A DNA stretch of 64,000 nucleotides from Nanobdellota archaeon. Lineage in GTDB: Archaea > Nanobdellota > Nanobdellia > Woesearchaeales > JAHIVG01. The stretch spans positions 8,064 to 72,063 of the forward strand of contig JAHIVG010000079.1 of assembly GCA_018816705.1 (NCBI GenBank), in the 5' to 3' direction. Shown piece after piece: positions 5,185-63,977 of this stretch. Within the stretch, counting starts at the first letter, position 1, and every line of letters starts with the position of its first letter. A program made the translations under genes and the position numbers. Under the pieces are notes generated by a model that saw nothing but the letters and a program-made list of their open reading frames with translations, made no database searches and was not told the origin of the DNA.

Positions 5185-6051
5185 ATGATAATCGCGTCGT
5201 TCGAGGAGTCGTCTGACCTGGCCAGGAAGGTGGCACGGCGCGCCAAGTCTTCTTATGTTCAGTTCGGAAAGCATGACTTCCCGGACGGCGAGGGCCTGAT
5301 AAAAATACCTGAGGTCAAGGGAAAGGAGCTGGTTGTTGTCGCGCAGATACACCGCCCGGATGCCAAGGTCATGCCCCTCATTTTCGCCCTGGCCACAGCA
5401 AAAGAGCTTGGGGCCAAGAGCATAACCCTGGTCGCGCCGTACATGCCATACATGCGGCAGGACAAGCGATTCAACCAAGGAGAATGCATCTCCAACATGA
5501 TCTTCGGGCGCTTGCTCTCCAGGTATGCGGACAGGGTAATCACAATAGACCCGCACCTCCACCGCGTACACAGGCTAAGCAAGATATTCCCCACCAAATC
5601 GACAAGGCTTTCTGCAGTGGGAGCGATAGCAGAGTACATCAAGAAGCACCACTCAGACGCTTTCATAGTCGGGCCTGACGCAGAGTCATACCAATGGGCA
5701 AGGAAAGTGGCCAAGCTTTCCGGGACCAAGGCAAGGATACTCCTGAAGAAACGCTATGGCGACAGGAACGTGAAGATATCGGGGTTCAAGGACGGCCTGA
5801 AAGGCAAGACCGCAATACTGGTGGACGACATCATCAGCTCAGGCCACACCATGATGGAGACTGTGAAAGAAGTGAAGAAGCACCGGCCACGAAGCATAAT
5901 CTGCATAGGTGTGCACGGCATATTCTCAGGCAAGGCAGATCTCAAGCTCAAGAGGCTGGGCGCGAAAGTTGTGACGACAAACACAATCCCCCACAAGACA
6001 AACAGGATCGACATCTCGCCAGTGATAGCAGAGGCCCTTAAACATGGTTAG
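5185..6051 (+). CDS. prs: Ribose-phosphate pyrophosphokinase (PRPP synthetase)
   Basis: DPHLH motif, GPDAES, and the PRPP-binding loop ILVDDIISSGHT. Confidence 0.9.
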   Translation: MIIASFEESSDLARKVARRAKSSYVQFGKHDFPDGEGLIKIPEVKGKELVVVAQIHRPDAKVMPLIFALATAKELGAKSITLVAPYMPYMRQDKRFNQGECISNMIFGRLLSRYADRVITIDPHLHRVHRLSKIFPTKSTRLSAVGAIAEYIKKHHSDAFIVGPDAESYQWARKVAKLSGTKARILLKKRYGDRNVKISGFKDGLKGKTAILVDDIISSGHTMMETVKEVKKHRPRSIICIGVHGIFSGKADLKLKRLGAKVVTTNTIPHKTNRIDISPVIAEALKHG

Positions 6052-7581: not shown

Positions 7582-7671
7582 ATAGGCATCCCGTCCGCCA
7601 GCTGCAAAGCGATAAAAAGGAAATTGCCTGCCTTACGATTATGCCTCCTTTTTTCTCAATGAATGGGCAGT

Positions 7672-8088
7672 TTATTTTTCTTCGTCAAATTTTCTAGAAG
7701 CTTCAATCCAATTACCCGATTCTTTAAATTTACATGAATCAATATAAAATGATTTTAATTTTGGTTCAATCATTGCATAAATCGTCTTTGCACCTTTTCG
7801 AAATGCCTCTTTACAAAATTTATCTACTAATTTTGTCCCTATTTTTTGTCCCCTATATTTTAAATCAATTCTCAATTCATGTATCAGGGCTTCATCGTTT
7901 TTAGTCGGCACAATAAAACCAGTGAGGTAACCAACCAAATTGTTATCTATTTCCACAACCAAGAAAATGGCATTCGTATTTTGTATGCAATTAAAAAAAT
8001 CTAATTTGGTCCAATAACTTTCATTTTCTTGTTTAGCAAGCTGAGTACAGTGATTTACATCTTTTATTGAAGCATTTCGAAAAAGCAT
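7672..8088 (-). CDS. GNAT family N-acetyltransferase
   Basis: The acetyl-CoA binding motif R/Q-x-x-G-x-G/A is present as YRGQKIGTKLV. The gene is AT-rich. Confidence 0.65.
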   Translation of the reverse strand: MLFRNASIKDVNHCTQLAKQENESYWTKLDFFNCIQNTNAIFLVVEIDNNLVGYLTGFIVPTKNDEALIHELRIDLKYRGQKIGTKLVDKFCKEAFRKGAKTIYAMIEPKLKSFYIDSCKFKESGNWIEASRKFDEEK

Positions 8089-8147
8089 AATATAATGGGG
8101 AAATTGGCACTATTATAAAGCTTTCTAATTTGGATAAAATATCTATT

Positions 8148-19003: not shown

Positions 19004-19093
19004 GAATTACCACTGAATAGGGGTATTTAAAGCTTTCGGTATGATTGGCTCTGTCCTGAGTGTCAATTTGCCTTCCTCGCTTGCAGGCAGATT

Positions 19094-19179
19094 CTCTTTT
19101 CCCGCCCTGCCACGCAAAGTGAGCAAAGCTCACTTGCGCCCAAGACTCCGTCTTTGGGGGGCGAGGCGGGAAAAGAGAG
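19094..19179. repeat. Hairpin repeat element, family X, copy A
   Basis: The outer stem ctcttttcccgcc / ggcgggaaaagag encloses the inner hairpin aAGTGAGC-aaa-GCTCACTt, followed by conserved caagactccgtctt. It is closely similar to 56804-56890. Confidence 0.6.
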
Positions 19180-19253
19180 CAAGCAACATTCAGCGCGACC
19201 GAGTCGCCAGACTTAGGACAGAGCCGGTTGTATATATAAACGCTTATCTGCCG

Positions 19254-19373
19254 GCCGCGTAGAAATCCTGGTTCTTTTTGATCCTCGCGAAAGTCAACAT
19301 GGTCACGCTCATATAAAAATCAGTCGCGTAACCGGATCAAAAAGAATCTCATTCTATCGGATTTCTACGCGGC
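19254..19373. repeat. Inverted-repeat element, family Y, copy A
   Basis: A perfect 15-bp terminal inverted repeat GCCGCGTAGAAATCC / GGATTTCTACGCGGC. An inner inverted repeat TGGTTCTTTTTGATCC / GGATCAAAAAGAA. A related copy lies at 47966-48096. Confidence 0.6.
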
Positions 19374-20765
19374 CTATCTGCCCAGAAGGGTATCCCTCTT
19401 CTGATAGCAGGCATCGACGAAGGATGCTAGCTTGGGCATCATCTGCGGCTCGGGAGCGTCTGAGAATGCCAGGTCAACATACGGCAGTATCTTGTCAGCA
19501 GCTGAGCCAGCCCTCTCGCGTGCGTTCCTAATCAATGCTTGAGATACAGACGTGGCAACAGTCTCATGCATGCACTGCCAGGGCCCGACATGGCATATGC
19601 CGCTGATTGCGGCATCGCCCACAGGCCGGAAATGGCCCTCGATGAAGAGGTAAGTCGTGCCGACAGTGATCGGAGACTCACCCTCAATGGCGGTGTGGAA
19701 TATGCCTCGGTCCTCGGCTTTCTTCGAATAGTCGTAAGCGTCATGTATCTCCCTGCCCCTGAGAAGATCCTCGAAAGGCATCCAGAGAATGTCCTTCTGC
19801 TTGTTCATGTACCATCTATTGATACCCTTCTTGAAAACATCAATCAGCGAGGACGGATGCCTAAGGCTCATGGCCTGCTTCGCATCCTGGTAGTTCCAGC
19901 TGTTGACATAAAGGAACCATTCGGCTGTGGATGCGACAAGTGTCTCCAAAGGCCTGCTGAAAGAGCCCTCCAACAGCTTAGAGATATAGTGGTTGGCTCC
20001 CGGATGGAGCCTCATGAAGAATTCGCCGTTCACAAGAGCTATCGGGAACCGTCGGGAGCGGTCAAAGTCCACCTTTGACATCTCGGCAGCAGCAGTGTAC
20101 ATCGCGTCCTCAAGGCCGTGGCCGCCAGACCTGATCTCATCGCACAGATGACCGAGAAGCTCCTTGTACTTGAGCTCTCCGGCCGTGTTCCCGACTTCAG
20201 GCTTTTTCTCGTAAGGCCTGATCCTCAGCAGGGCATTATATAATATGTCCAGGGCGAAGATGCTCTTGAAAGCCAGCTTGACAAGATCGTCTCTCTGATC
20301 AGGAGGCAGGTCCAACTCAGAATAGTTGGTCTTGCCAGAAGGGCTGACAATAGGCACCCCCTCATACCCGTTGCTGTCGAGGATGAGCCTCATAACCTGT
20401 GTGTACTGCCCCTGCCTGCACGGACCCTCGGCAGTGGGCTGGAACAAGGCAAGCTCGTCCTGGCCATGCTTCTCTGATTTCTTCTCCAGCCAGGCCAGGG
20501 CATCACCTATCAGGATGCGGAAGGGCTCGCAGGTCTGGGTTATGACATTCTTCTCCGCAAGCCCGTAAGTGTGCTCGGTGCAGGTCTCTTCCATGACCTC
20601 AGCAGGGATGCCGACACCTTGCAAAGCGGCTGCAAGGCCGTAAGAGCTGTCACCTGAGTAAGGTATGCCCCACGTGCGCTCGTTGAGGTTGTCAGGCATA
20701 GGCCTTGAAGTGTCATACTTCTTATCGAGCCGCGCCTGCAAGCCGGATGAGTCTTCGGGTTTCAT
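19374..20765 (-). CDS. 2-hydroxyacyl-CoA dehydratase-like (HgdB/DUF2229-type) protein, partner of the upstream ATPase fusion
   Basis: 463 aa. It overlaps the upstream gene by 4 nt. In clostridial 'CoA-substrate-specific enzyme activase' proteins this domain is fused to the ATPase modules. Confidence 0.65.
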   Translation of the reverse strand: MKPEDSSGLQARLDKKYDTSRPMPDNLNERTWGIPYSGDSSYGLAAALQGVGIPAEVMEETCTEHTYGLAEKNVITQTCEPFRILIGDALAWLEKKSEKHGQDELALFQPTAEGPCRQGQYTQVMRLILDSNGYEGVPIVSPSGKTNYSELDLPPDQRDDLVKLAFKSIFALDILYNALLRIRPYEKKPEVGNTAGELKYKELLGHLCDEIRSGGHGLEDAMYTAAAEMSKVDFDRSRRFPIALVNGEFFMRLHPGANHYISKLLEGSFSRPLETLVASTAEWFLYVNSWNYQDAKQAMSLRHPSSLIDVFKKGINRWYMNKQKDILWMPFEDLLRGREIHDAYDYSKKAEDRGIFHTAIEGESPITVGTTYLFIEGHFRPVGDAAISGICHVGPWQCMHETVATSVSQALIRNARERAGSAADKILPYVDLAFSDAPEPQMMPKLASFVDACYQKRDTLLGR

Positions 20766-47764: not shown

Positions 47765-47965
47765 ATCAACCAGGGGAGGTGAAGGGTTTATATATTTTTC
47801 TTCGGTAGTCTAGGTTCAAGAGCCTCGGCCCGCACAATACTCTTCAAGTGTATATGGCCCCTTTTACTGTCCTCCCGAGCCCCCACCCCCATACAGTCCG
47901 CCTCTGAGGCCGACAAGTTGAGGCAGTCGTGTCGAGCCTTCATCACTTGGCCGGCAAGAAAAACC

Positions 47966-48096
47966 GGCTTAGTAGAAAGTCTGGTTCTTTTTGATCCTTT
48001 ACCATAAGAACAGATAGTTATCTGTCTAATCTAACATAGACCTTAGTAATGGAAAGGATCAAAAAGAAATTTCCATTATCGACTTTTTACTAAGCC
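47966..48096. repeat. Inverted-repeat element, family Y, copy B
   Basis: ggcttagtagaaagtc-tggttctttttgatcc ... ggatcaaaaagaa-atttccattatc-gactttttactaagcc. The ~58-nt spacer contains the palindrome CAGATAgtTATCTG. Confidence 0.55.
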
Positions 48097-48121
48097 TGAA
48101 AAACCGAAACATACTCATTTC

Positions 48122-48227
48122 ATCCGTAGCTTCGATTTCTTGAAGAAATCGAAACATTTAAACAGCGAAAACCTGCGGTTTTTGGGTTTAAATGTCCCGA
48201 AAATGGAACATTTTCGAAACATTTAAA
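48122..48227. promoter_or_regulatory. Operator-like palindromes and direct repeats upstream of the wHTH regulator/ABC operon
   Basis: A perfect 21-bp palindrome TCGATTTCTTGAAGAAATCGA (48122-48142). The palindrome CGAAAATGgaaCATTTTCG (48198-48216). The direct repeat TCGAAACATTTAAA, twice. Confidence 0.45.
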
Positions 48228-48266
48228 TACTTCAAAATTCACTAAATTTATAAAATTGTAAAAATT

Positions 48267-48758
48267 GTGAAGATGGTAAAGATGCAGGCATTCGAAAAGG
48301 AATTCATCGACTTCTTCGTAGGTGTGTTCAGGGGCTTCGGCATGGACTCATTGAGCGCGAAACTGGTAGCCATACTATACATGGAGCCGGAAGAGGTCTC
48401 CATGGAGGATTTGGCGAAGAAGACCGGCTACTGCCTGGCCTCTGTCTCGAACAAGCTGCGCTTCCTGGAGAGCGTGGGGCAGATACAGCGCAGGAAACAC
48501 CCGGGCACCAAGAAGGTGTATTATTACATGCACAAGGACATAGCGAGGGTGCTGAAAGGGAAACTGGAGAAGAGCAGGCAGTCATGCATAGGGCCCATGA
48601 AAGAGGTCCTGCCCCGCATCATAGGGAAATACAGGAACGCGAAGATGGGCCCTAAGGAGAAGGCGAAGATGGCCATAATCAACGACTATTACCGGCAGGT
48701 CACCAAGATCGAGAAGATGATGGAGAAGATGATGGACTATCTGGAGAACCTATCATGA
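48267..48758 (+). CDS. Winged-helix transcriptional regulator (MarR/GbsR-like)
   Basis: HTH region MEDLAKKTGYCLASVSNKLRFLE; first gene of the ABC operon. Confidence 0.5.
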   Translation: MKMVKMQAFEKEFIDFFVGVFRGFGMDSLSAKLVAILYMEPEEVSMEDLAKKTGYCLASVSNKLRFLESVGQIQRRKHPGTKKVYYYMHKDIARVLKGKLEKSRQSCIGPMKEVLPRIIGKYRNAKMGPKEKAKMAIINDYYRQVTKIEKMMEKMMDYLENLS

Positions 48759-56619: not shown

Positions 56620-56803
56620 ACCGGTCGCTTATCATTTCTATTATACATGTCCCCTCGTTGACCATCCAGACCCCCACTCTCTAAAACTGGTACTTTGGCC
56701 CCGTTTCGCTTCACCACCACTTCCCCCACCCCCATGTAAGTTGCCTTAGAAATTTAATCCAAACAATATCCTTTTTCGTTCCTTTACAGGTCGCTGCCCT
56801 CAC

Positions 56804-56890
56804 TCTTTTTTCCCCGCCTCGGCACACAGAGTGAGCGAAGCTCACTTGTGCGCAAGACTCCGTCTTAGCGCGCGGGGCGGAGGAAAAAAG
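56804..56890. repeat. Hairpin repeat element, family X, copy B
   Basis: ctcttttttccccgcc...AGTGAGC-gaa-GCTCACTtgtgcgcaagactccgtctt...ggcggaggaaaaaag. It shows compensatory differences from copy A. Confidence 0.6.
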
Positions 56891-56984
56891 ACCCGACATC
56901 AGTTGGGCGCGACCTGGAGGAGGCTATTTCATCAGAGTCCGCTGGAGCAAAAGATATTTAAACACACGAATCTGATGAGGTGGC

Positions 56985-63695: not shown

Positions 63696-63977
63696 TGTGG
63701 GGAGTGCATAAGCCATCTTCTGTATTCTGCAACATTCGACTAAGCGCTTAAAGCTTGCACCGGCCAGGGCTCGCCGTTTCACCGCCATCTGGGGAACGTC
63801 TGCTGCGCAGCCCAGTCGCCTAGGTGTGCTGGAGCGTCATCCTTGGCCCAGAAGCGTTCGTTTCTGTGCGGTTGCCTCCCCTTTCGAGGACCCGTAGGGT
63901 GGCCTTTCGCGGTGGATGGACTTTCCTCAGCTACCAGGCTTCTCAGCCCGGTTACCGGCAGTTGCATGCACCCCCAC
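63696..63977 (-). ncRNA. rnpB: RNase P RNA
   Basis: The minus strand carries: P1 GTGGGGGTGC...GCACtCCCCAC; P4 5' strand GAGGAAAGTCC; ACAGAAA; GGCGGTGAAACGGCG (the CR-IV-like GGTGAAA); and ACAGAAGATGGCTTAT (the CR-V-like ...GGCUUA). A TATA TTTAAATA lies ~25 nt upstream. Confidence 0.75.

Follow-up and report, generated by a model that had tools for sequence, protein, structure and literature searches.

A probable MITE family positioned next to promoters in DPANN archaea

Two inverted-repeat elements in the window

The window analysed here, the whole stretch of 64,000 nucleotides, is archaeal and contains two copies of a short inverted-repeat element that we refer to as Y. The first of these, Y-A, occupies positions 19253-19374 on the plus strand, and both its sequence and its match to the family profile (nhmmer E = 1e-30) point to a complete 122-bp copy of the Y-A subfamily of what we interpret below as a MITE. 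Its left terminal inverted repeat, GGCCGCGTAGAAATCC (19253-19268, plus strand), is the perfect 16-bp complement of the right one, GGATTTCTACGCGGCC (19359-19374, minus strand). A previous reading made from the letters of this DNA alone (hereafter the sequence-only reading) had correctly described this repeat as perfect but had given its length as 15 bp. The same 8-mer, TATCTGCC, lies directly at both ends of the element as a target-site duplication, with the left copy at 19245-19252 and an identical right copy at 19375-19382. Next to the left terminal repeat is the subterminal motif TGGTTCTTTTTGATCC (19269-19284, plus strand), which is invariant across subfamilies and is a candidate transposase-binding site. 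It pairs with the opposite strand at 19334-19349 in the right arm (AGATTCTTTTTGATCC in the minus-strand reading) with 2 mismatches, in agreement with the inner inverted repeat that had been proposed for Y-A. The 16-mer family of this inner motif has 4 matches in the window, compared with 0.72 expected by chance. The plus strand of Y-A folds with a z-score of -9.3 against shuffled sequences, and on either strand its fold is far more stable than those of the shuffles.

One end of Y-A touches a gene. The final base of the right terminal repeat is the first base of the stop of a 463-aa ORF (CTA, 19374-19376), confirming that the element abuts this stop codon. When Y-A and one copy of its target-site duplication are removed, the ORF ends in ...LLGR followed by TAA and not TAG; the insertion turned the stop codon from TAA to TAG and left the protein unaltered. 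The 463-aa ORF, labelled "dehydratase-like" in the sequence-only reading, was without a Pfam match, and the BcrAD_BadFG/DUF2229 assignment belongs to its neighbour only. The protein beside Y-A is identical to the NCBI entry KJ709_06420 from a "Nanoarchaeota archaeon" MAG. Homologs of the 463-aa protein reach only about 50% identity, have other neighbours and provided no usable empty site for Y-A. On the left side, a TATA-box-like sequence, TATATATAAA (19231-19240, minus strand), starts 12-14 nt from the left end of the element, with the target-site duplication and about 5 nt in between. The promoter to which it belongs faces the minus strand, towards the X-A hairpin described further below. 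The place where Y-A inserted thus has the stop codon of the 463-aa gene on one side and this minus-strand promoter on the other.

The second element, Y-B (47966-48096, plus strand), is a 131-bp copy of a divergent subfamily (family profile E = 9e-18). Its terminal repeats, GGCTTAGTAGAAAGTC and GACTTTTTACTAAGCC, pair at 15 of 16 positions with 1 mismatch, and its target-site duplication GAAAAACC is found at 47958-47965 and, following an extra T at 48097, at 48098-48105. The inner motif matches at 47982-47997 and at 48056-48071, and the spacer carries CAGATAGTTATCTG at 48011-48024. Y-B was therefore rightly described as having the blocks of Y-A with a different spacer. The plus-strand fold of Y-B has a z-score of -9.6, and this element too is far more stably folded than shuffles on either strand.

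Copies at unrelated loci, target-site duplications and empty sites

The sequence-only reading had proposed to look for further copies and for target-site duplications at their flanks, and both were found. We scanned the 18-mer CTGGTTCTTTTTGATCCT against 185,579 species genomes, which returned 24 loci (26 matches) from a single MAG, JBDRLS01 ("Nanoarchaeota archaeon isolate MEGAHIT-group-1.791"), and otherwise chance single matches in bacteria. JBDRLS01 has about 22 insertion sites at unrelated loci, occupied by near-identical 121-bp copies of the same architecture. A metagenome scan added 3 more copies of the Y-A type, all from Ga0180007 and 96-97% identical to Y-A. In all, the further copies in related archaea number about 27 and occupy unrelated loci. 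The copies have 16-bp terminal inverted repeats that start with GGC and are perfect in most cases, and the subterminal motif TTCTTTTTGATCC is invariant and present in both arms. Perfect 8-bp duplications, each of a different sequence, flank 18 of the 25 complete copies, and another 2 copies have duplications with one mismatch.

A profile search identified a further diverged copy (locus L061, 416-533) with a one-mismatch duplication, GAAAGTAA and GAAAGTAT, whose terminal arms have decayed independently of one another (GGCTGCG.. versus GGTCACA..). The flanks of three JBDRLS01 copies do not match. These non-matching flanks are probably assembly joins at the repeat, since the loci L061, L071 and L118 have one flank in common.

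Short-read assemblies were also observed to break inside Y copies, with contig ends of this kind at L002, L049, L096, L118 and L061/L071, and different contigs were found to have one flank of a Y copy in common. The Y MITE leaves these MAGs fragmented and can give rise to chimeric joins.

Two empty orthologous sites were identified, both between related species. Our all-against-all comparison of ORFs revealed that the JBDRLS01 locus L080 is syntenic with the window at ~41.3-47.8 kb, at no more than 80% amino-acid identity. In L080 a Y copy lies directly upstream of GTAAAACATAAATAG, whereas the orthologous promoter in the window, ccGTAAAGCTTAAATAT, is without a copy. Similarly, the site upstream of an orthologous MAK..EKFK gene is filled in L061 and empty in L120. 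Both samples that contain the window strain, ERZ27247128 (contig k141_536706) and SRR6514274, carry Y-A as well as Y-B.

Y as a probable MITE

We took MITEs to be elements of 50-800 bp without coding capacity and with terminal inverted repeats of at least 10-15 bp. Y copies are 120-131 bp long, leave no room for an ORF, end in 16-bp terminal repeats, and are flanked by target-site duplications of fixed 8-bp length and variable sequence. They occur at unrelated loci (about 22 in JBDRLS01, 3 in Ga0180007 and 2 in the window), and orthologous sites exist in the empty state. Given this combination of small size, terminal inverted repeats, fixed-length but variable duplications, unrelated loci and empty orthologous sites, Y elements are very probably MITEs of DPANN ("Nanoarchaeota") archaea that derive from a DNA transposon and lack coding sequence, and their positions would be explained by the targeting discussed below. 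The earlier suggestion of a mobile element thus holds for Y by itself, on the strength of its duplications, copies and empty orthologous sites, but not for a unit made of X and Y. A DDE-type transposase supplied in trans would bind the terminal and subterminal repeats (TTCTTTTTGATCC), cut the target with an 8-bp stagger and join the element in, and repair of the gaps would then give rise to the 8-bp duplication.

MITEs are well known in both bacteria and archaea, for instance SM1-SM4 of Sulfolobus solfataricus (PMC10969869). Like Y, prokaryotic MITEs including SM1-SM4 are small, lack ORFs, have terminal inverted repeats and fixed-length target-site duplications, reach tens of copies per genome, lie between genes, and depend on a transposase acting in trans. 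A census of MITEs lists a Woesearchaea genome among the most MITE-dense archaea, with 105 MITEs/Mb (PMC11602168). Y itself matched nothing in the Rfam, plasmid, phage and viral collections. As a MITE, Y would be an ordinary element that explains why DPANN assemblies break at this repeat and that marks recent transposon activity in very small genomes.

Search for a transposase and the IS family of Y

We searched for an autonomous element with ends matching those of Y and found none in about 250 kb of archaeal loci, and no autonomous partner in the viral, plasmid and phage collections. Terminal-repeat matches in all of the archaeal loci compared were MITE copies only. The all-against-all ORF comparison yielded synteny and no multi-copy protein, and a scan for inverted repeats with duplications spaced 150-4000 bp apart yielded nothing. 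The contig sequence beyond the start of the window (8 kb) contains replication genes and no transposase. Viral contigs scanned with the inner 16-mer, the terminal repeat, and the two-block and right-arm patterns gave chance single matches in coding sequence or nothing, and Y-A had no blastn match in the plasmid and phage collections. Finally, a tblastn search with Tnp26, an approximate query, had only a spurious match inside a surface-protein gene.

Because no transposase was found, we leave the IS family open. An IS6-like origin is only a lead, suggested by the end sequences. The 8-bp duplication of Y is accompanied by ends, GGCCGCGTAG and GGCTTAGTAG, whose first two bases are GG and whose seventh is G, a weak character that is common to other families as well. 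Indeed, ISL3, IS1595, IS256, IS1, ISH6 and IS5/ISH1 also yield 8-bp duplications with GG- or GC-type ends. Elements of the IS6/IS26 family are recognised by an 8-bp duplication and by terminal repeats with G1, G2 and G7 (PMC6807381), and the family's MITEs MITEHarch3 and MITEBth2 share the 8-bp duplication, the GG start and G7 with Y (PMC6807381). The T8 and G10 of Y are also those of the bacterial IS6 consensus, GGTTCTGTTGCAAA. However, a DDE transposase of the IS6/IS26 type, with an H-HTH domain and bounded by the ends of Y, was not found in the sequences searched, and IS6 fits simple MITE amplification poorly since IS6 elements move through cointegrates.

Y copies stand in a fixed register with promoters

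An unexpected feature of Y is the position of its copies with respect to promoters. In 24 of the 25 complete copies, an element end has a TATA-like motif starting 12-17 nt away, a property of only 3% of intergenic positions in the same loci; Y-B is the sole copy that has no TATA box in this register. The motif lies to the right of the element in 19 copies and to the left in 11. The order at these sites is the element end, the 8-bp duplication, an A-rich, BRE-like stretch of about 6 nt and then the TATA box. Every copy with intact duplications (20/20), at many different genes, is in register to within about 2 nt, whereas a mean of 12% of positions within their own intergenic regions would be, and the joint probability from this within-region control is about 1e-21. 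When the empty sites were reconstructed and aligned on the duplication, they gave a sharply phased profile, C-AAAAAC-TTTAAATA, in which the eighth base of the duplication is C at 14 of 20 sites and an A-rich hexamer (consensus AAAAAC) stands at the BRE position, followed by TTTAAATA. The distance from the right element end to the downstream ATG is 41-48 nt and mostly 44-45 nt (about a dozen copies), and three copies have their left end 43-44 nt away from the start of a divergent gene. Among 169 long ORFs, this class of TATA-like motif peaks at -32 to -27 from the ATG. As such a peak fits leaderless archaeal genes, we regard the flanking motif as a genuine promoter element. These data show that the choice of target is highly non-random, with an archaeal promoter directly downstream of the 8-bp target.

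We considered whether Y brings its own promoter and ruled this out, because the orthologous empty site keeps a promoter of its own, the duplication stands between the element and the BRE/TATA, and the promoters differ from site to site. In this respect Y is set apart from the Correia elements (CREE/NEMIS) of Neisseria, which it otherwise resembles in having inverted repeats, a length of about 100-150 bp and a location mostly immediately upstream of genes (PMC10969869). Correia elements can affect the transcription of neighbouring genes and form RNA hairpins (PMC10969869). They belong to bacteria, however, their duplication is TA and they contain sigma-70 promoters of their own, whereas Y adjoins a promoter that already exists, with its duplication placed before the BRE.

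The register might have arisen through purifying selection alone, if insertion were random and an insert of 120 bp were tolerated only in the few bases that separate the upstream gene from the BRE/TATA of the following one. Intergenic regions in these genomes are very short, so the register could owe something to selection of this kind. In several tandem gene pairs the element starts no more than 10 nt from the upstream stop codon or overlaps it and is 44-45 nt from the next ATG, which leaves an empty intergenic region of only about 45-50 nt, as at L050, L101, L112 and L114. Against selection as the only cause, the register is held within about 2 nt in copies that have 100-500 nt of intergenic room (L064b, L070, L080, L088, L093, L098, L121 and Y-A in the window). 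It is thus kept where hundreds of non-coding bases are free, and it persists in the old, decayed copy of L061. The within-region control (20/20 against 12% expected) and the sharply phased flank profile C-AAAAAC-TTTAAATA also speak against it. We therefore consider it unlikely, although worth keeping in view, that selection by itself placed the copies beside promoters.

Rather, on balance we favour a register that is set at integration. The transposition machinery would itself select the position, through recognition of the sequence or the bend of the BRE/TATA region or through contact with the TBP/TFB complex, and selection in compact genomes would additionally remove harmful insertions. Purifying selection probably also contributes to the pattern seen today. 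A narrower version of this idea, in which the Y transposase reads a sharply bent BRE/TATA bound by TBP/TFB or contacts TFB/TBP and integrates exactly at the upstream edge of the BRE, appears doubtful at present.

In yeast, contact with TFIIIB (TBP + Brf1) brings Ty3 (and Ty1) elements to Pol III promoters, where they integrate. The analogy with Y is a functional one, in that insertion takes place at a fixed distance from a promoter bound by TBP together with a factor of the TFB/TFIIB family; unlike Y, the Ty elements are eukaryotic LTR retroelements with an integrase. A contact of the Y transposase with TBP/TFB is purely hypothetical. If it did occur, Y would be a prokaryotic DNA-transposon counterpart of the targeting of TFIIIB by Ty3, and a "safe-harbour" transposon adapted to the ultra-compact genomes of DPANN archaea. 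In a limited literature search we found no report of a fixed BRE/TATA register for an archaeal MITE or IS. Should the transposition machinery set the register, archaea would have in Y a clear example of DNA transposition guided by promoters, and Y would suggest a route to site-directed integration beside archaeal promoters. The copies of Y also offer a free map of active promoters in organisms that are unculturable.

Possible roles of Y in transcription and as RNA

A MITE origin would be compatible with an added function, and we considered whether the host has co-opted Y copies to stop transcription in both directions, or as insulators, where genes are tightly spaced. In archaea, oligo-T tracts serve as termination signals. 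On each strand, a T5 run (TTCTTTTTG) is located about 20-30 nt inside the element and within a strong hairpin, from which Y copies are predicted to act as possible transcription stops. Several copies start within 10 nt of an upstream stop codon, and all subfamilies carry the TTCTTTTT motif unchanged in both arms. However, transposase binding explains the conservation of this motif equally well, and the copies within one genome are too young for selection to be deduced from them. Co-option as a stop or insulator is therefore, in our view, rather improbable.

The stability of the fold also raises the question of whether Y is a structured non-coding RNA gene or another RNA-level element whose helices are selected as RNA. 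The fold is very stable on both strands (z of -7.8 to -9.6), and five positions of the terminal stem have different bases in Y-A and Y-B, with compensation on both arms. Such co-variation of the ends between subfamilies is, however, expected where both ends bind one transposase, and in the old L061 copy (416-533) the two arms have diverged independently and break the terminal stem at about 4 positions without compensation, so pairing is not maintained in old copies. Further, the copies are flanked by duplications of fixed 8-bp length from unrelated targets, near-identical copies occur at unrelated loci within one genome, and the adjoining promoters point away from the element. Y had no Rfam match at the gathering threshold across the whole window, and at permissive E-values the two loci gave only non-specific matches to miRNA hairpins. 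Selection of Y as an RNA is thus highly improbable, and the MITE reading is the one that we retain.

The X hairpins and their relation to Y

In the sequence-only reading, Y lay immediately 3' of an X-type hairpin at both loci, and X and Y were joined into a composite repeat of ~280 nt. That the two form one mobile or structured unit we regard as next to impossible: X-A does lie near Y-A, although about 74 nt away and not directly beside it, but the Y-A target-site duplication encloses Y alone, the sequence beside Y-B (47821-47965) is neither a homolog of X-A nor significantly structured, no Y adjoins the true second copy of X (56773-56914), X is missing from every Y-bearing locus of JBDRLS01 and Ga0180007, and none of the other Y copies (about 27) adjoins an X. 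The proximity of Y-A to X-A is most likely due to the insertion of Y next to promoters, as a TATA box lies between the two.

The X-A hairpin itself (19093-19178) is real and well folded. The region 47821-47965, examined as a second X-type hairpin, was rejected, having no alignment with X-A and a fold z-score of -0.9 against shuffles; the second X copy at 56773-56914 was recognised instead by core homology to 19067-19200. The X family (19067-19200 and 56773-56914) accordingly consists of a ~135-nt repeat in two copies, with 84% identity over the best 58 nt. It folds as a long stem with two hairpins, shows a few compensated changes, and has TATA-like boxes near both ends of each copy. X was without an Rfam match and is missing from the JBDRLS01 locus that is syntenic with the 56.8-kb copy. 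A small RNA gene specific to this lineage is one possibility for X, and a further repeat family is another.

Around X-A there is an additional inverted repeat of 15 bp, GGCTCTGTCCTGAGT and ACTTAGGACAGAGCC (19047-19061 and 19211-19225), which is not present around the second X. Its left end is separated by 8+6 nt from the TATA box of the adjacent minus-strand gene, exactly the geometry of Y, and there is no clean target-site duplication at its ends (GTATGATT compared with GGTTGTAT). This outer repeat may represent an older MITE from a different family that has X inside it.

Other observations at the loci

The terminal repeat GGCCGCGTAG carries TAG at positions 8-10. In L110 (copy at 5375-5495), by-eye inspection shows that the upstream ORF reads through the duplication and ends at this terminal-repeat TAG. 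The upstream protein seems to have had its final residues trimmed or replaced as a result of the insertion.

Two intergenic regions of the window, at 47862-47893 and 56698-56736, have in common a C-rich motif, GGCCCC..TTT....CCCCCACCCCCAT. The exact 13-mer CCCCCACCCCCAT occurs at 47880 and at 56723, and the minus strand is G-rich there with several G runs. Between Y-B and the gene at 48267-48758, which has a weak MarR-type match, the stretch 48140-48235 contains three copies of ACATTTAAA, two of them direct (CGAAACATTTAAA) and one inverted, with TTTCGAAA-type palindromes among them. This stretch lies upstream of the gene and could be a promoter/operator array.

An AT-rich stretch at ~7582-8147 lies in a segment of 42.6% GC, compared with about 52% elsewhere, and has no gene called in the ENA record. 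It contains a 28-nt imperfect inverted repeat (7795-7822 and 8056-8083). ARAGORN identified no tRNA or tmRNA in the 64-kb window, and an Rfam search placed an archaeal RNase P RNA, scoring 155.9 bits, on the minus strand at 63700-63975.
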